This document shows, in pieces, positions 1,128 through 47,069 of a DNA stretch of 64,000 nt. Under the pieces are notes generated by a model, which worked only from the letters and a program-made list of their open reading frames with translations, did no database searches and was not told where the DNA came from. The translations under genes were made by a program, and so were the position numbers. How positions within the stretch are numbered: the first letter of the stretch is position 1; each line of letters begins with the position of its first letter. The DNA is from an uncultured Chloroflexia bacterium (GTDB lineage: Bacteria; Chloroflexota; Dehalococcoidia; Dehalococcoidales; RBG-16-60-22): assembly GCA_963727315.1 (NCBI GenBank), contig CAVSFE010000002.1, forward strand, positions 407,723-471,722, in the 5' to 3' direction.

Positions 1128-1646
1128 TTATCCTCTGCTTTTCAAGTATGCAATTTCTTTGGGTTTATAGCCAAGTTTTAGTAAGATTTCCTCGGTGTGC
1201 TGGCCCAACAAAGGCGAAGGGCCCTGAGGCCTGCCCGGGGTCTTCTTGAGCTTGACAGGTAGGCCGAGCATTTTTATCTCGCCGCGGGTGGGGTGGTCAA
1301 CGGCAAAGATAATGTCGTTGGCGGCAAGCTGGGGATGGGCAATAACCTCATCGTAGGTAAGGCAGGGGTCGCAGCGCATCTTAGCATCGCGGAAAAGCTG
1401 CGCCCACTCGGCGCGGGTCTTCTGGCTAAAAGCCTCGTCCAAAAGCCGACCGATTTCTTCGCGGTGCTCGCGCCGGGCATCGTCGGTAGCGAAGCGGGGG
1501 TCGTCGGCCAAATTTTCCACCCCTACTATCTTACAAAAATCAGGCCACATGGGACCGGTGCCGAAGATGGTCAGGACATCCCCGTCCCTGGCGCGGAAAG
1601 GCCCGAAAGGCGGCGGCTGATAGCTCCGGCCCTCTTTATAGGGCAT
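1128..1646 (-). CDS. family III CoA-transferase (CaiB/BaiF), C-terminal fragment; same gene as 1571..2332, broken by a frameshift near 1647
   Basis: ...DDPRFATDDARREHREEIGRLLDEAF...PLLGQHTEEIL is a typical family-III C-terminus. Adding one G between GCAGG and ATGCCC joins ...FAEYLMPVAG to MPYKEGRSY. Confidence 0.8.
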   Translation of the reverse strand: MPYKEGRSYQPPPFGPFRARDGDVLTIFGTGPMWPDFCKIVGVENLADDPRFATDDARREHREEIGRLLDEAFSQKTRAEWAQLFRDAKMRCDPCLTYDEVIAHPQLAANDIIFAVDHPTRGEIKMLGLPVKLKKTPGRPQGPSPLLGQHTEEILLKLGYKPKEIAYLKSRG

Positions 1647-2332
1647 CCTGCCACCGGCATGAGATACTCGGCGAAACCGGAGAACTGCAGATAAAGCGCC
1701 GCATCCAGGTTATTCACCGTCAAAGCCTGTCCCAGGCCATGGCGCTCCCGTACGAAAAGGGCCGTCATCACGGCATAAGCCACCAGCATCCCGCCGACAT
1801 GGTCGCAGGCGGGGAAAGGAAGCATCTGAGGGACGCCACCGGGGTAGCCCATAACGCTCACGATACCGGACATCGCCTGACTCCACATATCGCCGCCGGC
1901 GCGATGAGCGACGGGACCGGTCTCTCCATAGCCATAGAAAGAGCAATAAATCACCTTCGGGTTGATTTTCGAGATTGCTTCATAGCCAATACCTAATCTC
2001 TCCGCCACGCCGGGCCGAAAGCTCTGCAAAACGACGTCGGCGTCTTTAGCCAATTTAAGGACGATTTCCAGACCCTCCGGCGACCGGATATCGATAGCGA
2101 GGTCTTTCTTGCCGCGATTAAAAGCCATCCAGTCGGCTTTGTCCGCAGCACCAGTGGTATCCGTATCCAGCACGTCATCCATGCCGGCGGGGAGCCCAAG
2201 GCGCGTGGCCTCGCCCTGTACTCTCTCCACTTTAATGACCTCGGCGCCCATATCCGCCAGCATGGCGCCGCCGAACGGGGCGGCGACGGCGATACTGAAA
2301 TCAAGGACTTTAATGCCTTCCAGAGGATACAT
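1571..2332 (-). CDS. family III CoA-transferase, N-terminal fragment (frameshifted; the last ~25 codons are out of frame)
   Basis: MYPLEGIKVLDFSIAVAAPFGGAMLADMGAEVIKVE is the canonical family-III N-terminal motif. Confidence 0.8.
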   Translation of the reverse strand: MYPLEGIKVLDFSIAVAAPFGGAMLADMGAEVIKVERVQGEATRLGLPAGMDDVLDTDTTGAADKADWMAFNRGKKDLAIDIRSPEGLEIVLKLAKDADVVLQSFRPGVAERLGIGYEAISKINPKVIYCSFYGYGETGPVAHRAGGDMWSQAMSGIVSVMGYPGGVPQMLPFPACDHVGGMLVAYAVMTALFVRERHGLGQALTVNNLDAALYLQFSGFAEYLMPVAGCPIKRAGAISRRLSGLSAPGTGMS

Positions 2333-4536: not shown

Positions 4537-4926
4537 CTATATTATCCCGTCTTTTTTCAACGCCCGCAGGTCTTTTTTTGTAAGTCCTATCTCTTTATAG
4601 ACCTCAGCGTTGTGCTCACCGATTAACGGAGCGCGGCAGTGCGTGGAGAAATCCATTAATGATGAACGGATGTATTCTCTCGGGTAGGTAATGCTCGCGC
4701 CCAGCTCCGGGTGCTCAATTTGCGCCCAGTAACCGCGGACATGAAGGCACTCATCGTCGAGGAGGTCCTGCATGCGGGAAAGGGGGCCGATAGAGACACC
4801 GCGCGGCACGGCGCCTTGAAGCAGCTCCTGGCGCGTGTGGCGCAGGAAGAACTCCCCCACCGGACCGGATATTTTATCCACCACTTCCTGATCGACCGTG
4901 AACATATCAAAGCCGTCCCAGTCCAT
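4537..4926 (-). CDS. family III CoA-transferase, C-terminal fragment; same gene as 4907..5770, with a frameshift near 4951
   Basis: ...APLIGEHNAEVYKEIGL at the C-terminus. Removing one A in GAGAAGAAG-A-CTGGCT gives the continuous ...WMDEKKLATDFLLDMDWDGF... Confidence 0.8.
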   Translation of the reverse strand: MDWDGFDMFTVDQEVVDKISGPVGEFFLRHTRQELLQGAVPRGVSIGPLSRMQDLLDDECLHVRGYWAQIEHPELGASITYPREYIRSSLMDFSTHCRAPLIGEHNAEVYKEIGLTKKDLRALKKDGII

Positions 4927-5770
4927 GTCCAGAAGGAAATCGGTAGCCAGTCTTCTTCTCGTCCATCCAGGCCACCAGAGAGCTTAAAGTCTTGGCGCCG
5001 GTGCGGCCGCCGATGATATTGAAAAACACATAGCCGTCCTTACAGCGCCACACCTGCCGCTGCGCCACCTGGGTGCTCATGCCGGCGCGGAAAGCCCCGG
5101 CTCGCTTTAAAATCGTCCCGTCAAGCTCGTAGGTAGGCACGGCATTGGCCTGAAACCAGGCGGCGGACTGCTGCATCGAGACATCGACGCGCTGGCCCTG
5201 CCCGGTCTGCTCTCGATGATAATAGGCCACCATACAGCCCACGGCAGCATCAGCGCCGGCGTGCAGGTAGGCCTGGGGGACACTAATACGGACGGGGGGG
5301 CCATCGGCCTCGCCGGTCTGATAGAGAGTGCCGCTCATGCCCATGACAACGATATCCGAGCCCTTATAGTCGCGGTAGGGCCCTCCAAGGCCGAAGGGCG
5401 TAATAGAAGCCCAGATGAGCTTTTTGTATATTTTTTGGAAGTGCGAATAACCCATATCAAGTTTATCCAGATAGTCGGGGGGAAAGGACTCAAGAACGAA
5501 GTCGGCGGTAGAGACCAGTTTTTTGAAAAGCCCTCGTCCTTCGGGTTTTTCGATATCGAGGGTAATGCCTTTTTTATTAGAGTTATAGGCGAACCAGTAA
5601 ATATTTTCCTCGGGGTCGGGGGCACCGCTCCAGAACGGGCCAATAGAGCGAGAGGGGTCGCCGCCGGGCTTTTCGATTTTAATAACCTTAACACCGAGGT
5701 CGGCCAGGATTTTCCCGCAGAGAAACCCCTTGGCGTCGGTAAGGTCTAAAGCTCGCAGGTGATTAAGCAT
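4907..5770 (-). CDS. family III CoA-transferase, N-terminal fragment (frameshifted)
   Basis: MLNHLRALDLTDAKGFLCGKILADLGVKVIKIEKPGGDP is a family-III N-terminal motif. Confidence 0.8.
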   Translation of the reverse strand: MLNHLRALDLTDAKGFLCGKILADLGVKVIKIEKPGGDPSRSIGPFWSGAPDPEENIYWFAYNSNKKGITLDIEKPEGRGLFKKLVSTADFVLESFPPDYLDKLDMGYSHFQKIYKKLIWASITPFGLGGPYRDYKGSDIVVMGMSGTLYQTGEADGPPVRISVPQAYLHAGADAAVGCMVAYYHREQTGQGQRVDVSMQQSAAWFQANAVPTYELDGTILKRAGAFRAGMSTQVAQRQVWRCKDGYVFFNIIGGRTGAKTLSSLVAWMDEKKTGYRFPSGHGLGRL

Positions 5771-11447: not shown

Positions 11448-11524
11448 GGCGCATTCGTCTAGCGGCCTAGGACGCGTCCCTCTCAAGGACGAGATCACGG
11501 GTTCGAATCCCGTATGCGCTACCA
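11448..11524 (+). tRNA. tRNA-Glu (anticodon CUC), CCA encoded
   Basis: Manual cloverleaf: acceptor GGCGCAT/ATGCGCT, D arm GTCT..AGGAC, anticodon stem CGTCC/GGACG with loop CT-CTC-AA, T arm ACGGG-TTCGAAT-CCCGT, discriminator A plus CCA. Confidence 0.9.
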
Positions 11525-19617: not shown

Positions 19618-19935
19618 ACTGCCAACTCCATCTTTTCCATCATCGTACCATATCTAGAAGAGGAAGCCTTGTCGGTGTTAGAATGTCTTGTTTACACGCA
19701 CTACTTTTGGTCGGCGGGTCAGAGTGCTAGCCTCAGGTAACAATGCATCTTTTTGTGCAGGCAAAGATTAACCATTTCGATGAAAAGTGCAATCATACTT
19801 TTTAGCTATTTGTTTAACCTCGCCGTATCATATAAAAAGCCATTTTGTCAACCATAATTACCTTTGAATTCAGACCAGGGTATTTATTATCCCCCCATTT
19901 CAGCCTTTGGAGTGCCAATAGGTTATAATGTGCAT

Positions 19936-21179: not shown

Positions 21180-21689
21180 TTGTTACAGGAACTCTACGAG
21201 AGGTTTATCCAGTTTGGCGTATCCCTGTATGCGGCTCACGTACGCGTCTACCAGGCCCTGGCGGCAGATAACGAGGCAGCGGCGCTGGAGTTCCTGGCCG
21301 AAGCCCTGACCATGGCGGCGCCGGAAGGCGTTATCCGCTACTTCGTCGATGAAGGCAAACTGCTTAAACCGCTTCTTGAAAAAGCCTTGGCTCAGGAAAT
21401 TACGCCTGAATTTACCAGACAGCTGCTGGATATCATCGAAGAAGAGGAGCGGCAGAGGCAAGCCAGGAAACGAGCGGCCGCACCCCCACCGCTGCCCGGC
21501 CTCCTCAGCGAACGAGACCTCGAAGTCCTCAGGCCGCTCGCCGACGATATCCCTAACCAGCGCATCGCCGCAAAGCTAAGCGTCAGCCTGGGTACGGTCA
21601 AGACCCATGTCCATCACATCATCGATAAGCTGGAAGTGAAAGACCGCCGCCAGGCGGTCCAACGTGCCAGAGAGCTCAAGCTGCTCTAG
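21180..21689 (+). pseudogene. 3' remnant of a MalT/LuxR-type regulator (only the C-terminal ~170 aa)
   Basis: It aligns with the last ~170 aa of the 876-aa regulator (...PEGVIRYFVDEG... / ...LSERDLEVLRPLADDIPNQRIAAKLSVSLGTVKTHVHHIIDKLEV). The frame is closed by a TAA at 21159-21161, where AT-rich DNA begins. The fragment is visibly GC-rich, like the island flanks. Confidence 0.7.
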
Positions 21690-23563: not shown

Positions 23564-23956
23564 TCACTTCTTTTGCAGGTGCTTGGCCACTATCTTCAGT
23601 AAGTCATTTGGGCTGACTGGCTTATCAATATAGTCTTCGTACTCTACTTCTAAACCGCGACTACGAGGGATTCCGGTCCCCGCTCCCCTTGTTGAATAAC
23701 TGGTCAACATAAGTACCGGAATTTCAGCAAGTTTCGGGTCTTTCTTGAGCTGTTCCGCCGCCGTAAAGCCATTTTCTACCGGCATGATGACATCGAGAAG
23801 TATTAAATCAGGTCTCTCTTCTCTTGCCTTGCGTAAACCTTCGTTACCGTCAACCGCGACTATTACCTCGTAAGGTTTGCTTTCTAGCACGATCTTTGTC
23901 GACTCGACAAAATCAGCATCATCATCAATAAGCAAGATTTTGGGCTTCCTTTTCAC
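23564..23956 (-). CDS. single-domain response regulator (CheY-like receiver)
   Basis: ILLIDDD..., PDLILLDVIMP (phospho-acceptor Asp present), ...LTSY..., DYIDKP. Confidence 0.85.
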   Translation of the reverse strand: MKRKPKILLIDDDADFVESTKIVLESKPYEVIVAVDGNEGLRKAREERPDLILLDVIMPVENGFTAAEQLKKDPKLAEIPVLMLTSYSTRGAGTGIPRSRGLEVEYEDYIDKPVSPNDLLKIVAKHLQKK

Positions 23957-23997: not shown

Positions 23998-24396
23998 TTA
24001 GGGCTTTTTCTTCTTGATGAGTCTGCCTACCCTTTCCAACAAGACATTGGGAGACATGGGCTTCTCAATATAATCATCCACGTCCAGTTCAAGTCCGGTC
24101 TCCAGTTCATAGCGCCGCCGACTGGCTTCCTCTCTTACCGAGGTAAGAATCAGAATAGGTATATCCTTATACTTGGACCACCTCGGGTCCTGAAGTTCCT
24201 TACATACGGCGAACCCGTCCATTTTAGGCATCATCAGGTCGAGAATCATCAGGTCCGGATTCTCCGCCTTAAGAGTGGCTAACCCCTCTATCCCATCGCG
24301 CGCGGTGGACACTTGATACCCCTGGGATTCAAGAATCATGGTAACGGCGTCGAGAATATCAGGGTCGTCATCAACAACGAGTATCTTGCCAGGCAT
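23998..24396 (-). CDS. single-domain response regulator (CheY-like receiver)
   Basis: ILVVDDDPD, PDLMILDLMMP, ILILTS, DDYIEKP. Confidence 0.85.
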   Translation of the reverse strand: MPGKILVVDDDPDILDAVTMILESQGYQVSTARDGIEGLATLKAENPDLMILDLMMPKMDGFAVCKELQDPRWSKYKDIPILILTSVREEASRRRYELETGLELDVDDYIEKPMSPNVLLERVGRLIKKKKP

Positions 24397-24408: not shown

Positions 24409-25326
24409 TTATATTACAGGCCTGGGCATAAGTCCAGCCTTTGCTACCATCTCCGGGACGATATCCTCCCAGCCCACCGCCATAATATGAATGCCTTGCA
24501 CTCCGGGTATCTCTTTAAGCTGCTCGATAATTTCCAGGATTATTTTTACCCCTTCATCCTTGGCCTTCTCTGCCTTTTCCATCCTGGTGACGATTTCATC
24601 GGGTAGACTTACTCCGGAAACGTAGTCTCTCATGTAACGGGCCATACCTACCGACCTGATGGGTATGACGCCTGCTAGGATGTGCACCTGCTTGTCCAGG
24701 CCCAGGTCGCAAACCATCTGCATGAACTTGGTGAATTTGGGTACATCATAGACCGCTTGAGTCTGGACAAAGTCTAGTCCGGCTTTGACCTTCTTGGCAA
24801 GCCTTTTCACCCGGAATTCAAATGGGTCGGCGAAGGGATTGGCGGCCGCGCCAATATATATCGGGACTTCCCCGGCTATTTCCTCGCCATTAAGAAATTT
24901 CTTCTCGTCCCGCATCTTCTTCAGCATCTGAATCAGCTGAATGGAGTCGATATCAAAGACACCCTTGGCGGAAGGATGATTACCAAACTTCTGATGGTCA
25001 CCGGAAAGGCAAAGGAAATTGCCTATACCCAGGGCTACAGCGCCCAGAACATCACTCTGGAGTGCCAGCCGGTTCCGGTCTCTAACAACCATCTGCATGA
25101 CCGGTTCGACGCCCACCCCCTTCAGAAGCAGGCAGCCGGCCAGGCTGGACATACGCACAATCGCCGTCTGGTTATCGGTGATATTGACGGCATCACAACA
25201 ATTACGAAGCATCTCGCCCTTCTTCTGTATCACTGCCGCGCTGGTGCCCTTGGGGGGACCTGCCTCGGCGGTGACGGCAAATCTCCCGCTCTCCAGTATT
25301 TTCTCCAGGTTGGTTCCTGCTTTCAT
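24409..25326 (-). CDS. metF: methylenetetrahydrofolate reductase, small MetF type
   Basis: The ATG at 25326 gives MKAGTNLEKILESGRFAVTAEAGPPKG...DAVNITDNQTA...CLSGDH..., which is the MTHFR pattern. It starts 20 nt after the kinase stop. Confidence 0.8.
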   Translation of the reverse strand: MKAGTNLEKILESGRFAVTAEAGPPKGTSAAVIQKKGEMLRNCCDAVNITDNQTAIVRMSSLAGCLLLKGVGVEPVMQMVVRDRNRLALQSDVLGAVALGIGNFLCLSGDHQKFGNHPSAKGVFDIDSIQLIQMLKKMRDEKKFLNGEEIAGEVPIYIGAAANPFADPFEFRVKRLAKKVKAGLDFVQTQAVYDVPKFTKFMQMVCDLGLDKQVHILAGVIPIRSVGMARYMRDYVSGVSLPDEIVTRMEKAEKAKDEGVKIILEIIEQLKEIPGVQGIHIMAVGWEDIVPEMVAKAGLMPRPVI

Positions 25327-25346
25327 TGATTTGCCTCCTCTAAACT

Positions 25347-26780
25347 TCACACCGGTTTGGGTAGTGTGCAAGAAAATTTACATCCGGTGTTGGTTTCAGA
25401 ACAGGGACTCTCAGCCCATATCTTACCACCATGAGCCTCAACAATCCTCTTGGATATCGACAACCCCAGACCTGTCCCCTTGACTTCTACGTTGCTACCG
25501 CGGAAGAAGTCTTCAAAGAGACGCGGCATATCCTCACGGGGAATGCCAATACCGGTATCCATAACCTCAATCAGCAATTCCTTGCCTTGGTCCCGTACCC
25601 TGACGGTTACCGCACCCTCCGGTGTATATCTAATAGCATTATTCACCAGATTGGTTATCACCTGTTGCAGTCGTGGAGCCGAACCTATAATTGGGGGAAT
25701 CACTTCAGGCAACTCCACTTTCAGGTTTATGCCCTTTTCCTCGGCCAGATTACGCTGACCTTCGATGGAATCTTTTAGCACCTGTAGCAGTAAAATTTCC
25801 TTCATCTCCTGGACAATCTGGCCAGTCTCAATGCGTGGAATATCCAGCAAATCACTAATCAAGGTCAGGAGTTCGGTAATACGGTGAGAACTCCGCTCCA
25901 GCATATTCTTTTGCTTCTCAGAAATTTGCCCGGCGAAACCACCCAGCAAGACCCACAGGAAACCCTGAATGGCAGTAAGCGGCGCTTTCAGGTCATGAGC
26001 CGCAATGCCAAGAAAGCGTAAGAACTTCTCCCTTTCCTCTCTCAGTTTGTTTATTTCACTGGAGGCACGCTCCAGTTCACCGGTCTTTTCGGCAAGCAGA
26101 CGCTCACCCAGTGCCACCACCTGCCGCTGTCTCTTTCTCAGCTCCCCGGCAATAGCGGTGGTCACGTAGGTGATACAGTAAAGGAGCAATGCCAGGGTGA
26201 TGAGCCTGGCCACGATATAGCTTCCCTGCCGGTACTGCGTTGGCGAAACGAATCCCTGAAGATTGACATGAGATATCACACCAGCATATTCCAAACCCGC
26301 CATCAATGCCACAAAGGCAATGGCTACCGTGGACAACAGATATACTATCCGGTAGTTAAGGCCGATACTGGCCAGGACGATGTGAAAGACGAAGAAGAAC
26401 ATGAACGGGTTTTCTATCCCCCCGGTGAAATGCAGTATCACGGTCAGGGCAAGCATGTCAAGTAAAATGTGGGTATATGTATATTGCCGGACACGCGGAA
26501 TAACCCGCTGGGGCGGCAATTTCTTCAGTCCCCTGACCTGCTGTGTCAGTATCAGGTTATAAATAGCCATGAAGGCACAGACAATATATACTGGCAGGGT
26601 GGTAAAACCGATTTGAAACGCGTATCTGGCGACGAGGGTGACGATGATAACCCCGAGAATGGCAAACCACCTCATATTGTTAAATACCTTGAGGCGCATC
26701 ACCAGTGTTTCTTCTTCGGGGGTGTGCTCGGTCTCTTCTCCCACCGGGGCTTTATCACTTATGGTATTAATAGTAGTCAA
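25347..26780 (-). CDS. membrane sensor histidine kinase
   Basis: About 6 predicted TM helices, a coiled-coil linker, H-box FLGIAAHDLKAPL, N/G boxes NLVNNAIRYT, DTGIGI and GTGLGLS. TTG start with an AAGGA RBS. Confidence 0.85.
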   Translation of the reverse strand: MTTINTISDKAPVGEETEHTPEEETLVMRLKVFNNMRWFAILGVIIVTLVARYAFQIGFTTLPVYIVCAFMAIYNLILTQQVRGLKKLPPQRVIPRVRQYTYTHILLDMLALTVILHFTGGIENPFMFFFVFHIVLASIGLNYRIVYLLSTVAIAFVALMAGLEYAGVISHVNLQGFVSPTQYRQGSYIVARLITLALLLYCITYVTTAIAGELRKRQRQVVALGERLLAEKTGELERASSEINKLREEREKFLRFLGIAAHDLKAPLTAIQGFLWVLLGGFAGQISEKQKNMLERSSHRITELLTLISDLLDIPRIETGQIVQEMKEILLLQVLKDSIEGQRNLAEEKGINLKVELPEVIPPIIGSAPRLQQVITNLVNNAIRYTPEGAVTVRVRDQGKELLIEVMDTGIGIPREDMPRLFEDFFRGSNVEVKGTGLGLSISKRIVEAHGGKIWAESPCSETNTGCKFSCTLPKPV

Positions 26781-26785
26781 AATAC

Positions 26786-27199
26786 CTATCCTTTGCTTTT
26801 CATGGCTAAGGGTCCCCAGTTTTTTATCTGCTCAGTCATTTCATCGGTGATGGCGAGAAACCTATCGCCCTCCGATGGAGACACCCACTCCAAACGCAAC
26901 CGCCCATCTTCAATGCCCAATTGAGAAAGCACCTTTTTCAACAGGGCGATACGCCGCATGGTCATATAGTTCCCTTCGGAATAATGGCAGTCTCCGGGGG
27001 GGCAACCGAGAACCAGGATGCCGTCGGCACCAGATGTAAACGCCCTCAGAATGAAGTCGGGTTCCACCCGGCCGCTGCACATCACCCTGATAGGGCTGAT
27101 ATTGGCATTGAACTTTATAGGTGAAGCACCGCTGGCTTCGGTAATCCGGTAGGAACACCAGTTACACAGAAAGGCAACGATCTTTGGTTCAAAGCTCAT
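26786..27199 (-). CDS. MvhD-like (methyl-viologen-reducing hydrogenase delta subunit family) iron-sulfur protein, copy 2
   Basis: The ATG at 27199 gives MSFEPKIVAFLCNWCSYRITEASG...VMCSGRVEPDFILRAFTSGADGILVLGCPPGDCHY. The track ORF extends upstream into metV. Confidence 0.75.
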   Translation of the reverse strand: MSFEPKIVAFLCNWCSYRITEASGASPIKFNANISPIRVMCSGRVEPDFILRAFTSGADGILVLGCPPGDCHYSEGNYMTMRRIALLKKVLSQLGIEDGRLRLEWVSPSEGDRFLAITDEMTEQIKNWGPLAMKSKG

Positions 27200-27225
27200 A
27201 CCAATACTCCACTGGAGCGTACCGT

Positions 27226-27900
27226 TTATGTCCCCCCCGATTTCTCTTGAGAGGTTATGCGGCGGGGCCCACCAGCATGAGAGGTGCTCCAATCTCGTAG
27301 CGGCTGGATTTCATCCAGCATTTCCAATTTACCCCGCGCCGACAGGCGGTCAATTATCGCTTGCCAGGCACAAGGTATATCAGGTGATATTTCACACTTC
27401 CCTTTGGCTGACCCGCCACATGGCCCGTTCAGCAAACTCTTGGCACATCTTGTTATGGGACAGATGCCGGCCGTCTTATCGAGAATGCAGTTCCCACAGC
27501 CAGAACACCGCTCTACCCATACGCCCTCCGTCTCTGGCATCCCCATGCACACTGTATCAAGCCCGGGAAGAACCGAGATGGCAGCGAATTTCTCACTCAG
27601 CGCTTGTACTCCTACACCACAACCCAATGACAGTATGGCATCCTTTTCCTTCACCTTATCCCCTATCGCATCGAGAAATTCCCATTCGCACTGACGTTCT
27701 ACAGTATGTTCTGAGAAGACCCGGTTTTTGCCCGATATCCTGTCGGCCATGCGGAGAGATGAAGCGAGAATCCCGACCTCTTTGTCCCCGCCGCTAAAGC
27801 AAATAGCCACACATGTGCCGCAGCCAAGTACCAGAATATTCTGATAACCTTCAATCATTGCCTTGATATTCTCAAAAGGTTTTGCTTTGGCAATAATCAT
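27226..27900 (-). CDS. metV: MetV-like protein (methylene-THF reductase C-terminal-domain / Cys-rich partner of MetF)
   Basis: NILVLGCGTCVAICFSGG...LSLGCGVGVQ...ERCSGCGNCILDKTAGICPITRCAKSLLNGPCGGS...CAW matches the acetogen MetV architecture as I remember it. Confidence 0.7.
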   Translation of the reverse strand: MIIAKAKPFENIKAMIEGYQNILVLGCGTCVAICFSGGDKEVGILASSLRMADRISGKNRVFSEHTVERQCEWEFLDAIGDKVKEKDAILSLGCGVGVQALSEKFAAISVLPGLDTVCMGMPETEGVWVERCSGCGNCILDKTAGICPITRCAKSLLNGPCGGSAKGKCEISPDIPCAWQAIIDRLSARGKLEMLDEIQPLRDWSTSHAGGPRRITSQEKSGGT

Positions 27901-27901
27901 A

Positions 27902-28324
27902 TCAACCCCCCTTTATCGGGCTAGGTCCTAATTTTTTTATTCTCTCGGTCATTTCCCGGGCAACTTCGGAAAATCGTCCACCCTCCGCTGAAGACATGAA
28001 GAACATCTCCAGCCTGTCCTTGCCCAGGCCAATTTTTTCCAGAAGATTTTTAGCGCGCGCTACTCTTTTCTCAGCGCGAAGGTTTCCCTCAACGAAATGG
28101 CAGCCACCTTTGAGACATCCGGCGACAAAAACGCCGTCAGCGCCCTGCTCGAAAGCCTTCAAGATATAGAGAATATCAACCGTGCCTGAACAGGGGAGCT
28201 TAACAATCTTGATATTAGTCGGGTATTGCAGTCGCATCACCCCGGCGAGGTCGGCCGCGGCATAAGCGCAGTAGTGGCAGCTGAAAGCCACAATCTCCGG
28301 TTCAAACTGTTCGGCAGAGGTCAT
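27902..28324 (-). CDS. mvhD: MvhD-like iron-sulfur protein, copy 1
   Basis: FEPEIVAFSCHYCAYAAADLAG...KLPCSGTVDILYILKAFEQGADGVFVAGCLKGGCHF. Confidence 0.8.
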   Translation of the reverse strand: MTSAEQFEPEIVAFSCHYCAYAAADLAGVMRLQYPTNIKIVKLPCSGTVDILYILKAFEQGADGVFVAGCLKGGCHFVEGNLRAEKRVARAKNLLEKIGLGKDRLEMFFMSSAEGGRFSEVAREMTERIKKLGPSPIKGG

Positions 28325-28475
28325 TTTTCTCCTCAGGTAAATCTTAGCTAATCGGCGTCAGCAAAGCCCGGCTCTTGACGATTACCTGCTCTTTCTTATA
28401 ATTTAACAACTCTATAGCTTCTCTGAGGACACTCAGCGGCACAGATACCGCAGCCTCGACACTTGGCCACTTCTA

Positions 28476-30131
28476 TCACGGCCACGCCATCTTCGTTAAT
28501 ATAGGGTACATCATAGGGGCAGACGCGAACACAGGTAAGACAGGCTTTACACTTTTCCGCATCCACCTGACAGACAGCGCCACCGACCTCCAGCTGTTGT
28601 TTCGACAGGATAGTTGTGGCTCGCCCCGCGGCTGCCTGCGCCTGTGTATGGTCTCATCAATGAACTTCGGGGAATGGGCCGTGCCACACAGGTATATCCC
28701 CTCCGAAGCAAAGTCAACCGGCGCCAGTTTGACATGGGCCTCGTGGAAGAAACCTTCCTCAGTCAGCGGCACCTTCAGGATTTTGCTCAGTTCTTCATTA
28801 CCTTCAGCAGGGACCATGGGCGTTGCCAGGACCAGAAAATCAGGTGATAGGACAAGCTCCTCACCCAAGATCGGGTCGAAGGCTATAACTTCGAGCTTGC
28901 TATCGATGGCGTTAACCTTGGGTAATTTATCATCGGAATAGCGAATGAACACTATGCCTTTTTTGCGCGCTTCGGTGTAGAGTTCCTCTTTGAAGCCATA
29001 GGTCCGGACGTCTTTGTAGAGTATATAGATATTTGCCTGCGGACTCATTTCTTTTATCTTCAGGGCATTCTTAATGGCAACGGTACAACAAACCCGACTG
29101 CAATACTGGTAATTCTTGCCGGGAGGCCGGGCACATAGAATCATAGCTATATCTTTAGCCGATGCTATTTCTTGGGGAGACGCCACGATTTTCTCTTCAA
29201 GGTCGCTCAAAGTAAGCACCTTTTCATTCTGTCCCAGCAGGTACTCGCTACCCCGGTATTCTTTGGCTCCCGAGGCGACAATGATTACTCCGTGCTCGAC
29301 CAACCGCTGTTTCTGTCCGTTTTCACTGGCGAGGGTGGTTTTAAAATTACCGACAAAACCATCTGTCTTGACCACAACTGTATCCATAAGGACTTCAATC
29401 AGCGGATTTGCCTTGACTCGCCTTTTTAAGGACTCCAGGAAATCCTGGGGGCTCTCCCCGTTAAGAGACAGGTGAATCTTCCTTGTCCAGCCGCCCAGCT
29501 CCTTTTCCCTTTCCACCAGGTATGTCTTGAACCCCTGCTCGGCCAGATTGAGAGCGGCCGTCATACCGGCAACACCGCCGCCAATGACCAGAGCATCATG
29601 ACTGAGCCCCAGGGTCACCTTGTGCAGTGGCTCAAGCAGGGCAACACGGGCTACGGCCATCCGAATTAATTCTTTAGCTTTCTCGGTGGCCTTTTTAGGT
29701 TCACGCATATGGACCCACGAGCACTGGTCGCGGATATTAGCCATCTCAAAGAGGAAGCGGTTAAGTCCGGCTTCCTTTATGGTCTCCTGGAACAGGGGTT
29801 CATGAGTTCGAGGGGTGCAGGAGGCAACCACCACCCGATTAAGGTTATATTCCTTTATCTTTTCCTTTATCTTCTCCTGGGTATCCTGGGAGCAGGTATA
29901 GAGGTTTCTATCAACAAAGACTACATTTGGCAGTGTCGCGGCATAATCCTTTACCTCCGGGACATTGACGTAACCACCGATATTGATGCCGCAATGGCAA
30001 ACGAAGACGCCAATTCTCGGCGGCTCCTTAGAGACATCTTTTTCCGGGGGATATTCCTTCTCTACCGTCAGAGTGTGGCGTGACGAGGCAAGTAAAGCTG
30101 AAGAATTGGCGGCGGCGGCGCTGGCCTGCAT
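28476..30131 (-). CDS. HdrA-like flavoprotein, C-terminal third of a single large gene (true extent about 28396..32812, with frameshifts near 28645 and 30258)
   Basis: GVFVCHCGINIGGYV...ASCTPRTHE...ALVIGGGVAGMTAALNLAEQG... The last ~55 codons of the track ORF are out of frame. The shifted frame reads QAQAAAGRATTILSKQQLEVGGAVCQVDAEKCKACLTCVRVCPYDVPYINEDGVAVIEVAKCRGCGICAAECPQ, with a stop at 28396-28398. Confidence 0.8.
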   Translation of the reverse strand: MQASAAAANSSALLASSRHTLTVEKEYPPEKDVSKEPPRIGVFVCHCGINIGGYVNVPEVKDYAATLPNVVFVDRNLYTCSQDTQEKIKEKIKEYNLNRVVVASCTPRTHEPLFQETIKEAGLNRFLFEMANIRDQCSWVHMREPKKATEKAKELIRMAVARVALLEPLHKVTLGLSHDALVIGGGVAGMTAALNLAEQGFKTYLVEREKELGGWTRKIHLSLNGESPQDFLESLKRRVKANPLIEVLMDTVVVKTDGFVGNFKTTLASENGQKQRLVEHGVIIVASGAKEYRGSEYLLGQNEKVLTLSDLEEKIVASPQEIASAKDIAMILCARPPGKNYQYCSRVCCTVAIKNALKIKEMSPQANIYILYKDVRTYGFKEELYTEARKKGIVFIRYSDDKLPKVNAIDSKLEVIAFDPILGEELVLSPDFLVLATPMVPAEGNEELSKILKVPLTEEGFFHEAHVKLAPVDFASEGIYLCGTAHSPKFIDETIHRRRQPRGEPQLSCRNNSWRSVALSVRWMRKSVKPVLPVFASAPMMYPILTKMAWP

Positions 30132-30246
30132 TACCGTCTCAGGGATGTCCTTGGGTGCCTGAAAAACGCCGGTGACGAAGATGCCTGGACTTGATGTCTC
30201 GACCGGTGAAAATTCTCCGGTCTGGCAGAACCGGTATTTATTGAGG

Positions 30247-31470
30247 TCAATGCCCAGTCTCTCTGGCCAGTTTTACGCCTTTCGCGGATGGCTGGAATCC
30301 TACCGAAAGAACTACCAGGTCGAATTCCTCGTTCTTTAACGTTCCATCTTCTTCAGCAAACCTGAGAAGTAGATTCCCGGTGGCTTTGACCTCTTCGATA
30401 TTAAATACCCTTGACCTCACAAAGCGGACTTTATGTTCTTGTTGCGCGCGATGGTAATACTGCTCATATCCCTTCCCGAAGGTCCTCATATCCATGAAAA
30501 AGATGGTTGTGTCAATCTCCCGACCGGCATGTTCTTTAGCAATGATAGCCTGTTTGATGGCATAGGTGCAGCAAACTGATGAGCAGTAGCCGGCATTGAT
30601 ACTCTCATCCCTGGAGCCAACACATTGAATCCAGGCAATCTTTTGGATGGGTTTCCTGTCCAAAGGCCTGATTAACTCACCTTTAAAAGGCCCGGAAGCG
30701 CTCAGCATGCGCTCAAACATGATGCTGGTAACGACATTCGGATATTTGCCATAGCCATAGTTGGTCAAGGCCGAAGGCTCATATTCGTCAAGTCCAGGAG
30801 ATAGGATGATAGAGCCGACGTTAATATCTACGTATTCATCCTGCATCTCATGGTTGATGGCGTCGGCTTCGCATCTTTCCTCACACTCCCGGCACTCAAA
30901 GCAGCCCTCTATCTGCGAGGCTAAGCAGCGTCTTGCCTCTCTCCGGGCCGCGGCTATAGAATAGACCTGCTCCACCTCTTTAAAGCCTTTGATTCGTCTC
31001 TCTGGCTTCAGCTCTTTACCTTTCACCCTGTTCTTCGAAGGGAAGCGCTTTTTAAGGGCAACAATTTCATTTTTACTGAGTTCTTGCGGGGCTCGGGTAT
31101 CATCTTTGGAGGTTAAAGGCTCTCCTTTGAGATATTCATCGATGGAACGCGCCGCTTTCTTCCCGGCGGCGATAGCCTCAATAACCATGGCCGGACCGGT
31201 AACCACGTCTCCGCCGGCAAAAATACCGTTAATATTGGTAGCTAAAGTGGCTTCATTGACGGCGATTGTTCCCCGCGCGGTTACTTTCAAGCCATTTTTC
31301 CTGGCATAATCAATATCTGGAGCTTGACCCAGAGCCGGAATAACGGTATCAACATCGATGAAGAATTCAGAGCCTTCAATCGGGACAGGGCGACGACGAC
31401 CGCTGTCATCAGGCTCCCCGAGATTCATCTTAATACACTCGATCCTGGTGACCCTGCCTCCTCTCGGCAA
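30247..31470 (-). CDS. middle fragment of the same gene: end of the GltD/NfnB-like NAD(P)H module plus the HdrA core
   Basis: GRVTRIECIKMNLGEPDDSGRRRP...FAGGDVVTGPAMVIEAIAAGKKAA (GltD-like), then CFECRECEERC, CVGSRD...YCSSVCC (HdrA-like). The start and end are both created by frame changes. Confidence 0.8.
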   Translation of the reverse strand: MPRGGRVTRIECIKMNLGEPDDSGRRRPVPIEGSEFFIDVDTVIPALGQAPDIDYARKNGLKVTARGTIAVNEATLATNINGIFAGGDVVTGPAMVIEAIAAGKKAARSIDEYLKGEPLTSKDDTRAPQELSKNEIVALKKRFPSKNRVKGKELKPERRIKGFKEVEQVYSIAAARREARRCLASQIEGCFECRECEERCEADAINHEMQDEYVDINVGSIILSPGLDEYEPSALTNYGYGKYPNVVTSIMFERMLSASGPFKGELIRPLDRKPIQKIAWIQCVGSRDESINAGYCSSVCCTYAIKQAIIAKEHAGREIDTTIFFMDMRTFGKGYEQYYHRAQQEHKVRFVRSRVFNIEEVKATGNLLLRFAEEDGTLKNEEFDLVVLSVGFQPSAKGVKLARETGH

Positions 31471-32812
31471 TTACCCGGGTGGGGTTAGCCAGAAACATGA
31501 TATCGATGCCTTCTTCCTCGGCGGCCCTGACCTCCTCATCGCTGGCCGGCATCTCCGAACGGGAACGCCGGTAGATGACTTTCACTTCGGCGCCCAATCT
31601 CCTGGCCACGCGGGCGGCATCCATCGCCGCATTACCGCCGCCAATAACTGCCACCCTTTTACCGACATCGACTTTTTCTCCCGAGTTGACTTTTCGCAGA
31701 AATTCGACGGCATGGACGACGCCGGCAGAATCCTCTCCGGGGATACCCAGCCTCAGACTTTGATGGGCGCCTGAGGCAATGAAAATAGCTTGATAGTCCT
31801 GCCTGAGCTGTTCCAGCGTTATCTCTTTGCCTACTTTAACCTTCGTCTTTATGTTTACCCCTAATTTCTCGATATAGCCTATATCCCTGGCGAGTATGTC
31901 CTTGGGGAGTCTATATGCAGGTATTCCGTATCTGAGCATGCCCCCTGGCTCAGGCAAGGCCTCATAAATGGTCACCTCATAACCTTCGAGGGCCAGATCA
32001 TGCGCTGCCGCCAGACCCGCCGGACCACTCCCGATGATAGCCACCTTCTTACCATTCCTGGTTATCTGAGGGACTTCGTAGTTCTCAATATCAATTTGGT
32101 CGGTAACGAATCTTTTTAAAGCACGAGAAGCAACAGGTTCATCAAGCTGCCCGCGATTGCAGGCTTCTTCACAGGGCGCGTAGCAAACCCGACCGCAGAT
32201 GGCTGGTAGAGGATTGGTACTCCTGATCAAGGCATAGGCTTCTTTGAACATTCCCTCGGCAACCAAAGCCGCGTAACCTTGAACATTCATGTGGATGGGG
32301 CAGGCATCCTTACAAGCGGCATGACAGGGTCTTTCTTCTCTTTTATCGATGGCGTATGTCCTGGGTACTGCTTGAAGATAAGGTGTATAAATGGCTTTCC
32401 TGGTTCCCAGCCCTTCGTCAAAGGCACTCGGCATGATAATAGGGCATCCCTCGGCACATACTCCGCAGCCGGTACATTTAGCACCGTCAACGAATCTGGC
32501 CTTTTTCTTAACAGAAACAGTAAAATTCCCGGGCTTACCCCGGACACCAAGGACTTCTGAATATGTTAGAAGGTCGATGTTAAGATGTCTCCCGCACTCC
32601 ACCAGTTTGGGAGAGAGAATACACATAGAACAATCATTGGTGGGTAGAGTTTTGTCAAGCTGAGCCATCACGCCGCCAATGGCGGGGGAATCCTCTACAA
32701 GGTAGACTTTATACCCGGACTCAGCGAGGTCGAGGGCTGATTGAATCCCGCCGACACCCCCACCAACGACAAGTACCGCCCCTATTTTTTCGCTTGCCAC
32801 CGTCTTGTCCAC
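31430..32812 (-). CDS. N-terminal fragment of the same gene: HdrA N-terminus with an inserted GltD-like Fe-S/FAD/NAD(P) module
   Basis: AVLVVGGGVGGIQSALDLAESGYKVYLVE...LPTNDCSMCIL...CTGCGVCAEGCP (HdrA). Then NPLPAICGRVCYAPCEEAC, VAIIGSGPAGLAAAHDLA and VAVIGGGNAAMDAA (GltD/NfnB-like). Confidence 0.8.
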   Translation of the reverse strand: MDKTVASEKIGAVLVVGGGVGGIQSALDLAESGYKVYLVEDSPAIGGVMAQLDKTLPTNDCSMCILSPKLVECGRHLNIDLLTYSEVLGVRGKPGNFTVSVKKKARFVDGAKCTGCGVCAEGCPIIMPSAFDEGLGTRKAIYTPYLQAVPRTYAIDKREERPCHAACKDACPIHMNVQGYAALVAEGMFKEAYALIRSTNPLPAICGRVCYAPCEEACNRGQLDEPVASRALKRFVTDQIDIENYEVPQITRNGKKVAIIGSGPAGLAAAHDLALEGYEVTIYEALPEPGGMLRYGIPAYRLPKDILARDIGYIEKLGVNIKTKVKVGKEITLEQLRQDYQAIFIASGAHQSLRLGIPGEDSAGVVHAVEFLRKVNSGEKVDVGKRVAVIGGGNAAMDAARVARRLGAEVKVIYRRSRSEMPASDEEVRAAEEEGIDIMFLANPTRVIAERRQGHQDRVY

Positions 32813-32865: not shown

Positions 32866-33435
32866 TTATGCTAAAGCCGCTTCTATTGCTTGCACTATAT
32901 CCTTGTTGTCAAAAAGGCTCATGGCAATTGCCCCGGCCGGACAAGCCGCACTACACACGCCGCAGCCGCGGCACGATTCAATAACAAGGTGAACAGTATA
33001 TTTATCATCCTTTGTTTCCAGCTTAAGCGCTTCGAAGGGGCATGTTGATACACAGATACCGCAACCCGAGCATAAGTCTTCATTGATGGACAAAGGAAGA
33101 GTGTATCCTTCTTTGGTCGCCAGGTGTTTCAGGATATCCCAGACAACGGAAAACTTGACTTTCTGCGGGCAGTTTTTCTCGCATAGAAAACACTCAGAAC
33201 AATACCAGATATAAGGGCTACTTAAGACTTTATTTCGCATACCTAGGTTAAGCATCCTGACTATTTTCCTCGGGTCATGCTCGGGGTATATTTCATGAAT
33301 GGGACAGGCAGCGGTGCAGGTTCCACAGGTAAAGCAAGCAGTAGCGTCATTAATAATATCGCCAGCGGCTACCTCAAACTTAAAATTACGGTCAAGTTCC
33401 GATACTCTAACTGGCTTAGGTGCTGAAATCTCCAT
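32866..33435 (-). CDS. HdrC-like 4Fe-4S dicluster protein with an extra ferredoxin domain
   Basis: CFTCGTCTAACP...CSECFLCEKNCP (HdrC-like spacing), then CSGCGICVSTCP...CRGCGVCSAACP. Confidence 0.7.
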   Translation of the reverse strand: MEISAPKPVRVSELDRNFKFEVAAGDIINDATACFTCGTCTAACPIHEIYPEHDPRKIVRMLNLGMRNKVLSSPYIWYCSECFLCEKNCPQKVKFSVVWDILKHLATKEGYTLPLSINEDLCSGCGICVSTCPFEALKLETKDDKYTVHLVIESCRGCGVCSAACPAGAIAMSLFDNKDIVQAIEAALA

Positions 33436-34035: not shown

Positions 34036-34524
34036 ATGGCGAAGAAGAAGTACGCAAAATACGTGTTCTCCGGGTTCAGGGAGGAAATGAACCTACCGTT
34101 CATCGCCAAGCCGCAGGCATATTTCCGGGGGGCCAGTCAAATACCGGGGGCGGGTGTCAACATGGGGTGGCAACTGTTTATCAAGCCGATATTGCTGGAA
34201 ACGGAGCCTCATACCCATAACGCCGACGAATACCTGATTTTCCTGGGCCATGACCCCGCCGACTGGTTCAGCAGCTTTGACGCGGAGATCGATTTATTCA
34301 TCGGGGAGGAGATGGAAAAATATCTCATCGACAAGCCGACGATTGTCTATATTCCGCCCAATCTAACCCACTGCCCGCTTGACTTCCGGGTCATCAACAA
34401 GCCCGTGCTGTTCACGGCGCTGCTACAGACGCCGATATTTACCAAGACGATGAAGGGAAAGGAATATAAGTTCGACGGACCGGACGCCAAGGGCAATATC
34501 TCCGGGGAGATGTCTAAAATATAA
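34036..34524 (+). CDS. small cupin-like hypothetical protein (paralog family with 41636..42079 and 42072..42560)
   Basis: ...ETEPHTHNADEYLIFLGHDPADWFSSFDAEIDLFIGEEMEKYLIDKPTIVYIPPNLTHCPL... shares the H.H...DE....G.DP......GEIE...G.......VP.G..H.P pattern with the other two. Confidence 0.6.
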   Translation: MAKKKYAKYVFSGFREEMNLPFIAKPQAYFRGASQIPGAGVNMGWQLFIKPILLETEPHTHNADEYLIFLGHDPADWFSSFDAEIDLFIGEEMEKYLIDKPTIVYIPPNLTHCPLDFRVINKPVLFTALLQTPIFTKTMKGKEYKFDGPDAKGNISGEMSKI

Positions 34525-41635: not shown

Positions 41636-42079
41636 TTATTGATATTTCTTGCCCATGCCAGCGGTAAAGTGGAACATCGGCTTATCGATGCGCCTGATGT
41701 TTATCGGCCCGTGCTCGACGCCGGCGGGGACGAAGGCGATAAAGCTCTTATCGATGAAGTTCTGCTTGCCGTCGATCCATATTTCTATTTCGCCGTTGAG
41801 GTTGTAAGGGTCTTCAGGGTCGGAGCCGACCCAGGCGATGGTCTCATCGTAATCATGGCGATGCGCCCCGACGGTGCGGTTCTTGAGCCCTCCCGTTTTC
41901 TCCGGCCAATCACCGGGGAAGAACCATGCGGTCTCCATATAGAACGCCCCTTTTTTCACGTCGCTGTCCAGGGAAAGCAGTCGCCGCGCCTCGTTATCCG
42001 CGAACACGGGCGTCCAGGGTGAGTCGCCGACGACGTCCCGCAACTCCGTCACGAAGTATTTTTTGTCCCATTTAGCCAT
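41636..42079 (-). CDS. small cupin-like hypothetical protein
   Basis: The ATG at 42079 (MAKWDKKYF...) follows GGAGCAGGAAAC. HRHDYDETIAWVGSDPEDPYNLNGEIEIWIDG...VPAGVEHGP. The track ORF start (42145) overlaps the upstream paralog. Confidence 0.6.
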   Translation of the reverse strand: MAKWDKKYFVTELRDVVGDSPWTPVFADNEARRLLSLDSDVKKGAFYMETAWFFPGDWPEKTGGLKNRTVGAHRHDYDETIAWVGSDPEDPYNLNGEIEIWIDGKQNFIDKSFIAFVPAGVEHGPINIRRIDKPMFHFTAGMGKKYQ

Positions 42080-42572: not shown

Positions 42573-43004
42573 CTAAATATTGCGGGCGGTCTCCATCCCA
42601 TGGCTGATGGCATCGGCAATCAGGAGCGGCTCTTTACAATCGCCGATAGCGAAGAGTTCAGGCACCTTGCCCTTCAGGCCTTCGAACAACGTCGGGTCGG
42701 GAAGCAAAGGAAGGGCGGGGATAATGGTATCGGCGGGAATGGTCTGCTTTTTACCGTCTTTATCAATTATCGTCAGCCCTTTATCAGTTATTGCCACATA
42801 CTCTTTAACGCCGGCGATGAGGGTCACGCCTTTTTTCCGGAACCAGTCGAAAAGATAAGCCTGGATAACGTCGACCATCCCCTGCCCGAGGGTCGGGGAC
42901 TTCTCCACGATAGTGACCCGCCGGCCACGCTTGACGAGGAACTCGCCGAGCTCACAACCGTGCAGGCTGCCCCCGATAATGATGACTCTTTTGCCAATTG
43001 GCAA
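42573..43004 (-). CDS. FadH-like (2,4-dienoyl-CoA reductase / OYE-fused) flavoenzyme, C-terminal fragment; same gene as 43016..44659, with a frameshift near 43080
   Basis: GKRVIIIGGSLHGCELGEFL...AIGDC... is the second nucleotide-binding domain. The shifted frame upstream reads LSIVRLKFYLRFIGPKTLRWLTRFYLPIGKRV and joins directly. Confidence 0.75.
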   Translation of the reverse strand: MPIGKRVIIIGGSLHGCELGEFLVKRGRRVTIVEKSPTLGQGMVDVIQAYLFDWFRKKGVTLIAGVKEYVAITDKGLTIIDKDGKKQTIPADTIIPALPLLPDPTLFEGLKGKVPELFAIGDCKEPLLIADAISHGMETARNI

Positions 43005-43015
43005 ATAAAATCTGG

Positions 43016-44659
43016 TCAGCCACCGCAGGGTTTTCGGGCCGATAAAACGCAGATAAAATTTGAGCCTGACGATGGAGAGTCGGCGCTGCTGACGACATTA
43101 GCCCGGTTTATCCCGGGGATATCGGGAACTGCAGGCTTACCACCACCGGCGATAATAACCGCATCCGGCCTGATTTTCCCGATAACTTCCGGAGTTATAG
43201 ATTTGCCGAGGACTATTTTTACACCGAGCTTCTTAAGCTGGCGCTTAAAATATTTAATCATGGCAGGCAGGTCTTCAAGCTCGGTGCCTTTTACCAAGGC
43301 GGCGATGGGCAGCAGCCCGCCGAGCTTAGTTAGCCGGTCATATAGCGTCACGTCATGGCCGCGCAAGGCAGCTACCCTGGCCGCCTCAAGACCGGCCGGA
43401 CCCGCCCCGACCACCACCACCTTTTTCTTTTTCTCCGCTTTTTCAACGATATTGTAGTCTTTACCCATAAAGGCGTTAATGCGGCACCGCCGGCTCCCCA
43501 GGCAGTTCTCGCAGGCGGTGCAGGGCGCGATGTCATCCAGCCTCCCGGCGATTATTTTAGCGGGCAGGTCGGGGTCGGCCTGAAGGCGCCGCGTCATGGC
43601 GATAAAATCGGCTTTGCCCTCACGAAGGACTTTCTCGCCCAACCGCGGGTCGAGCTTGCCGACCACCATGACGGGGATAGTCACCTCCCGTTTTATCCCC
43701 GCCGCCAGATTAACGTTCCAGGCGGCACCGCGCCCAAGGGCGTTGTATTCTTTCGGAAAGCTCTTCAACGGTATAACCGGCTCCGGATAAAAAAGGAGGT
43801 CGGGGAGATAAGCGCCGACGTGATATCCGAGCCAGTGGCTCCTCACGTGGATGGCATCGGCGCCGGCGGCCTGCAGCAAACGGGCGGTGTTTTTAGCATC
43901 CTCGACCGTCAAGCACTGCTCATCGGCGATACCGACGATACGCCCGATTTCAACGCCATTAATGCAGACGGAGACGGGAAAGTCCCCGCCAAGGCGGTTC
44001 TTGATTTCCCGCACAATAGAGGTCACGAAACGCGCCCGGTTTTCCACCGACCCGCCGTAGATGTCCTGCCGGCGGTTCCAGAAAGGCGACAGGAAGTTGT
44101 GCAGCAGGTGGCTGCTGGCGGCATTAACGTCCACGCCGTCGAAGCCGGCCTTCCGGGCCCGCACCGCGGCGCCGGCGAACTTATCAATAATTGCCTCGAT
44201 TTCCGGAATCGTAAGCACGTGGGGCATTTCGTTATGAAAATCGTTTTCCGATTTCATCGTGACCGGCGAGGCGGCGATGGGCTGACCTTCGAAAAAGGGC
44301 GTGATGCCCAGCAACGCCCTCTGCCAGGGGCCGTCGTGGTTCATCTGCATAAACGTGGGGCAGCCGTACCTATGGATGACCTCGACCAGCTCGCTGAGAC
44401 CTTTGATGAACCTGTCGTCGTCGATACGGTAGCGCTGCTGCCAGCGCGCGCCCAGAGGGTAGTCGATGGTGGGCGACTCGACAATCAGGAGCCCGACGCC
44501 GCCCCGCGCCAGCGACTCGTAGTAAGCCAAGATAGCGGCGTTCATACGGGTCTCGTCCTGATGCCACATGAAAGTCCCGGCACCGGTCTTGACGATGCGA
44601 TTCCTGGTCTTTACCGACCCGATGCGGCCGGGCTCTAAAAGCTTATCGAATTTGCCCAT
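43016..44659 (-). CDS. FadH-like NADH:flavin oxidoreductase (OYE TIM barrel + Fe-S + FAD/NAD domains), N-terminal fragment
   Basis: The OYE-like N-terminus is ...IVKTGAGTFMWH..., ...HDGPW... The Cys cluster is CTACENCLGSRRC. VVVVGAGPAGLEAARVAALRGH is also present. The last ~25 codons are out of frame. Confidence 0.75.
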   Translation of the reverse strand: MGKFDKLLEPGRIGSVKTRNRIVKTGAGTFMWHQDETRMNAAILAYYESLARGGVGLLIVESPTIDYPLGARWQQRYRIDDDRFIKGLSELVEVIHRYGCPTFMQMNHDGPWQRALLGITPFFEGQPIAASPVTMKSENDFHNEMPHVLTIPEIEAIIDKFAGAAVRARKAGFDGVDVNAASSHLLHNFLSPFWNRRQDIYGGSVENRARFVTSIVREIKNRLGGDFPVSVCINGVEIGRIVGIADEQCLTVEDAKNTARLLQAAGADAIHVRSHWLGYHVGAYLPDLLFYPEPVIPLKSFPKEYNALGRGAAWNVNLAAGIKREVTIPVMVVGKLDPRLGEKVLREGKADFIAMTRRLQADPDLPAKIIAGRLDDIAPCTACENCLGSRRCRINAFMGKDYNIVEKAEKKKKVVVVGAGPAGLEAARVAALRGHDVTLYDRLTKLGGLLPIAALVKGTELEDLPAMIKYFKRQLKKLGVKIVLGKSITPEVIGKIRPDAVIIAGGGKPAVPDIPGINRANVVSSADSPSSGSNFICVLSARKPCGG

Positions 44660-47055: not shown

Positions 47056-47069
47056 TCGGACTATCTATA

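Follow-up and report, generated by a model that had tools for sequence, protein, structure and literature searches.

A frame-broken HdrL-type gene in a Dehalococcoidales genome: probable consensus indels in an HdrL-MvhD-MetVF cluster

Large soluble homologs of HdrA that carry a GltD/NfnB-type module binding NAD(P)H (reduced nicotinamide adenine dinucleotide, with or without the phosphate) were described as HdrL in 2009 (PMC2702500) and also in Syntrophobacter fumaroxidans (Sfum_0824; PMC5947623). Here, we analyse a gene of this kind in a stretch of 64,000 nucleotides (nt), called the window below, from the genome of an uncultured bacterium of the Dehalococcoidales (assembly GCA_963727315.1, contig CAVSFE010000002.1, positions 407,723 to 471,722). 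The deposited reading frame of this gene is broken four times, probably by errors of the consensus sequence. As in both described systems, mvhD follows the gene immediately, and an Fe-S electron-transfer protein adjoins it, as Sfum_0822 does in S. fumaroxidans. The window differs from the system of 2009, whose HRM2 proteins were compared by description, in having no selenocysteine, no adjacent hdrBC and no dsr genes; the partners of the gene are metV and metF.

Two further groups of systems resemble the locus. In the HdrA-NfnB fusions HdrA9, HdrA10 and HdrA11 of the anaerobic methanotrophic group ANME-1, an NfnB-homologous insertion of about 400-500 amino acids (aa) interrupts HdrA, as it does in the window, and a role in coupling NADPH and MetF to bifurcation of the Hdr type has been suggested for these fusions (Chadwick et al., 2022; PMC9012536). 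Compared by description, the window protein is bacterial, twice the size, and carries a second complete HdrA-like module. The HdrA-type/MvhD/MetV/MetF neighbourhood systems share the gene set of our locus, including a two-component system beside metF as reported for DscP3. In contrast to these, the window encodes neither HdrB nor HdrC, and its HdrA-type subunit is the giant NfnB-containing HdrL form. We found no biochemistry in the literature for the NfnB-containing HdrL variant of MetVF clusters.

The breaks themselves also have described counterparts. Fragmented gene calls driven by indels are well documented in long-read assemblies (PMC9262707), and many of the 'pseudogenes' in databases are assembly artefacts (PMC11017572). 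The spurious pseudogenes of long-read or low-coverage assemblies (PMC9262707; PMC11017572; 10.1101/2021.08.23.457338) show the same features as the window, namely single-base indels that hit several otherwise conserved genes which are intact in nearly identical or in related genomes. Both the HdrL family and this type of artefact are already known.

Reconstruction and identity of the gene

The HdrL gene measures 4469 nt as deposited and 4467 nt, or 1488 codons, once four one-base indels (three extra bases and one absent base) are repaired. Three long open reading frames (ORFs) lie on the minus strand within 32812..28344, at 31430-32812 (460 aa), 30247-31470 (407 aa) and 28476-30131 (551 aa), together with shorter open frames at 28653-28399 and 28472-28347. 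When five segments are joined and one base is restored at the third junction, a protein of 1488 aa without any internal stop is obtained. According to this reconstruction and to the alignment with homologs, its actual C-terminus reads ...CAAECPREAIELLNYKKEQVIVKSRALLTPIS. The repaired gene has no in-frame TGA and hence no selenocysteine. The gene and its segments are as follows.

28344..32812, minus strand: whole HdrL-type gene, with a GTG start at 32812 and a TAA stop at 28346-28344; colinear with orthologs after repair
31463..32812, minus strand: segment A, codons 1-450; N-terminal part of the first HdrA-like flavin adenine dinucleotide (FAD) domain and most of the NfnB/GltD-like module, ending ...NPTRVIAE
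30259..31461, minus strand: segment B, codons 451-851; remainder of the NfnB-like module and central HdrA-like part
28647..30257, minus strand: segment C, codons 852-1388; second HdrA-like module, with the CHCGxNIGG N-terminal Fe-S domain and the FAD domain
28425..28646, minus strand: segment D, codons 1389 to about 1463; linker and C-terminal 2x[4Fe-4S] ferredoxin domain, to ...CAAECP
28344..28423, minus strand: segment E; true C-terminus (R)EAIELLNYKKEQVIVKSRALLTPIS and the TAA stop

An earlier note on this DNA, made from the letters alone, had recognized one HdrA/GltD-type, 'HdrL-like' gene chopped by single-base frame changes, and the homologs and the DNA alignment with orthologs agree with that description. 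Its length of about 1470 codons and its stop at 28396-28398 were both short of the mark, the true TAA lying further downstream. NCBI and ENA list the 460-aa N-terminal fragment together with MvhD and MetV on a single contig of 1,559,876 bp, so the breaks belong to the public assembly.

A search with the repaired protein retrieved thousands of full-length homologs, with top scores above 3000 bits (E = 0), far beyond chance. The seven closest (P0001-P0007) are intact, each of exactly 1488 aa and 88-92% identical to the window protein. The closest homologs lie mostly on contigs annotated as Dehalococcoidales (P0001 is so named by its source), and the best matches in genome collections are metagenome-assembled genomes of the Dehalococcoidales. 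All four junctions are gapless in an alignment of ten protein sequences, the window and nine intact homologs; the seamless translation that the earlier note had read across three of them is thus borne out. At the DNA level, alignment to the intact orthologs L002 and L003 (both 88.5% identical to the window gene) and L004 (85%) gave exactly four gap columns in 4470, each of one base, and no other indel. L002, L003 and L004 are free of indels at all four points and P0001-P0007 are unsplit, where a split shared by relatives had been named as the observation that would speak for separate genes or a real pseudogene. Judged by these comparisons, 32812..28344 is one gene.

The domain order proposed earlier, that is HdrA with an inserted GltD/NfnB module, the HdrA core, a second FAD domain and a C-terminal 2x[4Fe-4S] domain, agrees with the Pfam and PDB searches. 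On the repaired protein, Pfam finds Fer4_20 at residues 163-241, Pyr_redox_2 at 255-550, FAD-binding signatures from 1072 and two 4Fe-4S motifs at 1416-1473. Among PDB entries, HdrA of Methanothermococcus matches in four stretches (5odc_A, E = 5.5e-201), its residues 2-174 aligning to HdrL residues 929-1101, and 8rvu_a matches with E = 1.8e-195. The region at about 162-568 matches chains of the NfnI/NfnB, GltD and dihydropyrimidine-dehydrogenase type (5jca_L, the NfnI large subunit, 4ylf_B and 2vdc_G). In the CHCGxNIGG motif, C938, H939, C940, G941, N943, I944 and G945 are invariant in the homolog alignment. The predicted architecture has two HdrA-like modules in a row: the NfnB/GltD-like NAD(P)H module is inserted into the first, and the second is complete and carries the C-terminal ferredoxin domain. 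With its HdrA homology, its predicted NAD(P)H-binding module of the GltD/NfnB type and mvhD directly downstream, the gene can be assigned to the HdrL-type HdrA/GltD-NfnB fusions.

The four junctions and their likely origin

The four breaks of the deposited frame are listed here as read on the coding strand.

31462, minus strand: junction 1, an extra A; GCCGAG-A-GGAGGC, where L002, L003 and L004 all have GCCGAG-GGAGG
30258-30266, minus strand: junction 2, one extra base; GGC[C]AGAGAG[A]CTG, the exact base being ambiguous, with the gap column placed at 30266 by the ortholog alignment
between 28647 and 28646, minus strand: junction 3, one G missing; ACCATA^CACAGG, the G being present in L002, L003 and L004
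28424, minus strand: junction 4, an extra A; CCTC-A-GAGAAG, with the extra base placed at 28424/28425 by the ortholog alignment

All three frame changes of the earlier note lie where it had put them (junctions 1 to 3), and the fourth, which it had missed, is shown by the contig L001. This independent contig of 1268 bp comes from the Logan assembly of run ERR10755944 and was reached via an identical MvhD protein. Aligned to window positions 28537..27269, it matches in 1266 of 1269 columns (99.8%), and the sole gap is the window A at 28424. At this point L001 reads CCTCGAGAAG, in which CCT CGA GAA encodes P-R-E, in frame and in agreement with close homologs. In the protein, the junction directly follows the final Cys-Pro of an Fe-S motif. 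Two C/T transitions, at 28016 and 27734, further distinguish the 1268 bp of L001 from the window, so close strain variants of the window population exist in public data; the transition in metV changes Ser to Leu, as read by eye from the codons rather than from a computed translation.

At junction 2, an extra base near 30258 had been noted and is there, and the orthologs, which read CTGGCAGAGAGA, favour LAERLG over the LARELG of the earlier reconstruction; the protein alignment is gapless at this point. The G restored at junction 3 yields an Ala codon in ETI-A-QAQAAAGRA, and the residue is Ala in eight of the nine aligned homologs and Ile in P0014. Junction 1 falls inside the Pyr_redox_2 match and sits within a 9-nt CT tract of the plus strand; the JGI (Joint Genome Institute) contig L084 also lacks the insertion. 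A scan of JGI metagenome contigs with a pattern accepting both alleles found the inserted allele nowhere else and returned only a relative of 88.5% identity, which has the uninserted allele. Inspection by eye gave no consistent methylation-type motif shared by the four junctions.

We consider it probable that all four breaks are consensus indel errors, three spurious insertions and one deletion, in what looks like an intact, ordinary and functional gene of an HdrL-MvhD-MetVF cluster. The sequence evidence points to an origin in sequencing or assembly, and the assembly is presumably long-read based, given that an uncultured organism is represented by a genome-sized single contig of 1.56 Mb. Errors of this kind are typical where long-read or low-coverage assemblies have been incompletely polished. 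The ratio of nonsynonymous to synonymous substitution rates (dN/dS) of the repaired gene against L002 is 0.084, with values of 0.088, 0.102, 0.076 and 0.052 for four segments; the parts after the first break are as constrained as the part before it, and intact neighbouring genes range from 0.05 to 0.31. Among 548 alignment columns that are invariant in the nine homologs, the window protein deviates at two, both conservatively (E to D and S to A), and the intact P0001 likewise deviates at two. Since dN/dS is uniformly low, stops are absent and the deviations at invariant sites are so few and conservative, the repaired gene shows no decay.

The same type of lesion occurs in at least three other genes of the window, which are split inside single domains according to Pfam domain-continuity checks. 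These checks were used to find hidden frame switches, as a reference-free codon-usage score did not discriminate.

1128..2332, minus strand: family-III CoA-transferase; ORF 1571-2332 covers Pfam profile positions 1-213 and ORF 1128-1646 covers 223-366, with the frame change at about 1664-1700
4537..5770, minus strand: second family-III CoA-transferase; ORF 4907-5770 covers profile positions 4-248 and ORF 4537-4926 covers 279-366, with the split near 4945
42573..44659, minus strand: old yellow enzyme (Oxidored_FMN) plus Pyr_redox_2 reductase of the enoate/2,4-dienoyl-CoA reductase type; Pyr_redox_2 positions 1-122 in ORF 43016-44659 and 143-288 in ORF 42573-43004

In the first of these, tblastn with the intact paralog at 3311-4534 shifts from frame -1 to -3, which looks like a missing base. 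The junction of the second reads GAGAAGAAG-A-CTGGCT on the coding strand and is of the insertion type, in a purine tract as in HdrL; this insertion and the insertion-type events at junctions 1, 2 and 4 all lie in or at CT/AG tracts of 7-10 nt. The split of the reductase, at about 43010-43075, amounts to a net change of -1 and could equally be two +1 events some 15 nt apart.

It could instead be supposed that some or all four frameshifts are real and that HdrL is a genuine, very recent pseudogene. The concentration of four of the at least seven breaks of the window in this one gene would fit such an inactivation, as would the finding that, with the sites where the ortholog alignment puts them, three of the four do not change the length of a homopolymer. 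We nevertheless hold a pseudogene to be unlikely. Four neutral indels should normally be accompanied by many substitutions and some stops, and none are seen; the low dN/dS, the equal constraint on the downstream segments and the two conservative changes at 548 invariant sites all argue in the same direction. Moreover, the 99.8% identical L001 is intact at junction 4, unrelated genes of the window show the same lesions, and the inserted allele of junction 1 was not found elsewhere in the JGI metagenome contigs.

It could also be supposed that the pieces are separate subunits of a naturally split enzyme, or that transcriptional slippage or programmed ribosomal frameshifting (+1/-1) at each junction yields the full-length protein. 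Junction 1 does lie in a Shine-Dalgarno-like GAGAGGAGG string, and the insertion sites are all in short purine tracts, which is what this explanation has in its favour. The breaks, however, cut through domains rather than between them and leave single Pfam domains divided. Neither of the long downstream pieces has a credible start or ribosome-binding site of its own: the first codon would be a TTG within the preceding ORF for one and an internal Met for the other. A natural split into subunits is rejected on these two grounds. As for recoding, L002, L003 and L004 are in frame at all four sites and P0001-P0007 are uninterrupted, which leaves no conserved feature on which recoding could operate, and by eye no junction has a slippery heptamer or a homopolymer run. 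We know of no precedent for four recoding events of mixed sign within one gene, and regard this whole group of explanations as extremely improbable.

Several observations weigh against consensus errors as the source of the breaks. No same-strain sequence was found across junctions 1 to 3, so that junction 4 alone is confirmed, and L001, with two single-nucleotide differences from the window, is not strictly the same genome. Searches with short protein queries gave at best 62-65% identity at junction 1 and 95% at junction 3 (P0249), and no same-strain fragment. P0123, a JGI fragment clustered with the N-terminal piece, stops before junction 1. Among the queries used to look for other public contigs, neither the 551-aa nor the 189-aa ORF, nor the 460-aa fragment, nor the small genes at 42072-42560 and 44692-45084 gave a usable result; only MvhD led to a contig, L001. 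Compared with known spurious pseudogenes, the errors are unusually concentrated in one gene: HdrL makes up 7% of the window and holds four of its at least seven frame-breaking indels. A naive binomial probability for this clustering is about 7e-4, a figure that overstates the case as the gene was picked for looking broken. A higher density of purine/pyrimidine tracts was considered as the cause and dismissed, tracts of at least 7 nt occurring at 12.75 per kb in HdrL and 11.69 per kb in the comparison. Finally, again in contrast to known spurious pseudogenes, the positions given by the ortholog alignment would make only one of the four sites, junction 2 (C versus CC), a change of homopolymer length. 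Changes in the length of homopolymer runs are the most familiar type of nanopore error.

A special case of consensus error would be an artefact of strain mixture, in which reads of co-occurring relatives or of paralogous hdrA genes were mixed during consensus building or polishing. Such mixing would suit the clustering of errors in a gene that holds two HdrA-like modules, the existence of strain variants indicated by L001 (two differences in 1.27 kb) and the presence among the other broken genes of members of a set of three CoA-transferase paralogs. Against it, the flanking conserved genes for MvhD and MetF are clean; we regard it as possible but doubtful.

Gene neighbourhood and other features of the window

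The genes around HdrL are intact where so stated below, and all are on the same strand.

32866..33435, minus strand: polyferredoxin of 189 aa with 4Fe-4S dicluster domains, upstream of HdrL; intact, in a single frame, 86% identical to the L002 ortholog
27902..28324, minus strand: MvhD/FlpD of 140 aa, directly downstream of HdrL and beginning 20 nt past its true stop; intact
27226..27900, minus strand: MetV-like protein, DUF5981 (Fe-S subunit of the methylene-tetrahydrofolate reductase C-terminal type); intact
26786..27292, minus strand: second MvhD/FlpD; intact, with the ortholog alignment beginning at 27199
25347-26780, minus strand: histidine kinase, between the second mvhD and metF
24409..25371, minus strand: MetF (MTHFR); intact
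23998-24396 and 23564-23956, minus strand: two response regulators, after metF

Linkage of HdrL, MvhD, MetV and MetF is common in 80 related loci from species-representative genomes, and mvhD lies directly downstream of HdrL in most of them. HdrBC is not encoded at the HdrL cluster of the window. Embedded in the metV/mvhD...metF cluster is a two-component system of one histidine kinase and two single-domain response regulators, whose arrangement is kept in L002, L003 and L084; a similar system flanking metF was reported for marine Chloroflexi (PMC5736913).

The cluster differs from those of its closest relatives in one respect. In L002 and L003, genes for the small (Oxidored_q6) and large subunits of a [NiFe]-hydrogenase separate the second mvhD from the histidine kinase (16027-18440 in L002), and L084 has a block of 2.5 kb at the same position (5205-7766). 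No trace of these subunit genes was found anywhere in the window, where the flanking genes abut at 26780-26786. This absence could be taken in favour of a pseudogene, whose inactivation would perhaps be linked to the missing hydrogenase. However, most of the 80 related loci keep an intact HdrL with MvhD, MetV and MetF and have no adjacent hydrogenase, and hydrogenase loss was rejected as a reason for decay. On the evidence of these loci, the hydrogenase difference reflects ordinary variation in gene content.

What is known of the families, together with the gene context, suggests how the products might work together. The NfnB-like module may oxidize NAD(P)H and the HdrA-like flavin may be the site of flavin-based bifurcation or confurcation; electrons could pass through MvhD and the polyferredoxin to MetVF for the reduction or oxidation of methylene-tetrahydrofolate.

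Outside this cluster, a set resembling glutamate mutase is found on the minus strand (MutL at 5782-7131, a B12-binding subunit at 7189-7614 and MutE at 7639-9189). It adjoins the three CoA-transferase paralogs, an enoyl-CoA hydratase (2349-3257) and short-chain dehydrogenases, and may belong to a methylaspartate-type or related acyl-CoA pathway. A second cluster on the minus strand, at 46432-50757, comprises lysine-2,3-aminomutase (49507-50757), two ATP-grasp proteins resembling D-Ala-D-Ala ligase (48528-49529 and 47464-48543), a GNAT acetyltransferase (47070-47543) and a MarC-family membrane protein (46432-47055), and is reminiscent of the synthesis of beta-lysine-derived compatible solutes or of peptides.

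The plus-strand ORF at 21180-21689 (169 aa) contains only the last TPR_MalT repeat and a GerE domain, and is 48% identical to the C-terminal 168 residues of an intact 876-aa regulator of the MalT/LuxR type at 16616-19246 on the minus strand. This LuxR-type ORF was considered as a further frameshift and left out of the break count, as it matches the C-terminal residues of the paralog only and the preceding ORF (19864-20940), which has no Pfam match, shows no detectable relation; either a truncated paralog or a small regulator that stands alone is conceivable. Three small ORFs of about 160 aa, at 34036-34524 (plus strand), 41636-42145 and 42072-42560 (both minus strand), have no Pfam match. The latter two, which are adjacent, look alike by eye and have a common ...H.H.YDE... 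motif, and the first has a similar N-terminus, again by eye. ARAGORN and Rfam detect a single RNA gene in the window, a tRNA-Glu(CTC) at 11448-11524 (plus strand), in a 1-kb stretch without long ORFs.

If the frameshifts were real, a Dehalococcoidales-like population would just have inactivated HdrL, which presumably serves MetVF as its bifurcating input module linked to NAD(P)H, in a lineage that is also without the Mvh-type hydrogenase genes found in the cluster of its nearest relatives. We judge such an event quite improbable; it would amount to a very recent loss of the HdrL module, and as a natural knockout it would show that MetVF can work in the absence of HdrL. If, as we think probable, the breaks are consensus errors, annotators of this 1.56-Mb genome would miscount a key gene of energy metabolism as three or four fragments or as a pseudogene. 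With at least three further genes affected in the same 64 kb, polishing or frameshift-aware annotation is needed before metabolic inference. The repaired locus would then be a further example of the widespread and biochemically uncharacterized HdrL-MvhD-MetVF arrangement, here without HdrBC or hydrogenase.

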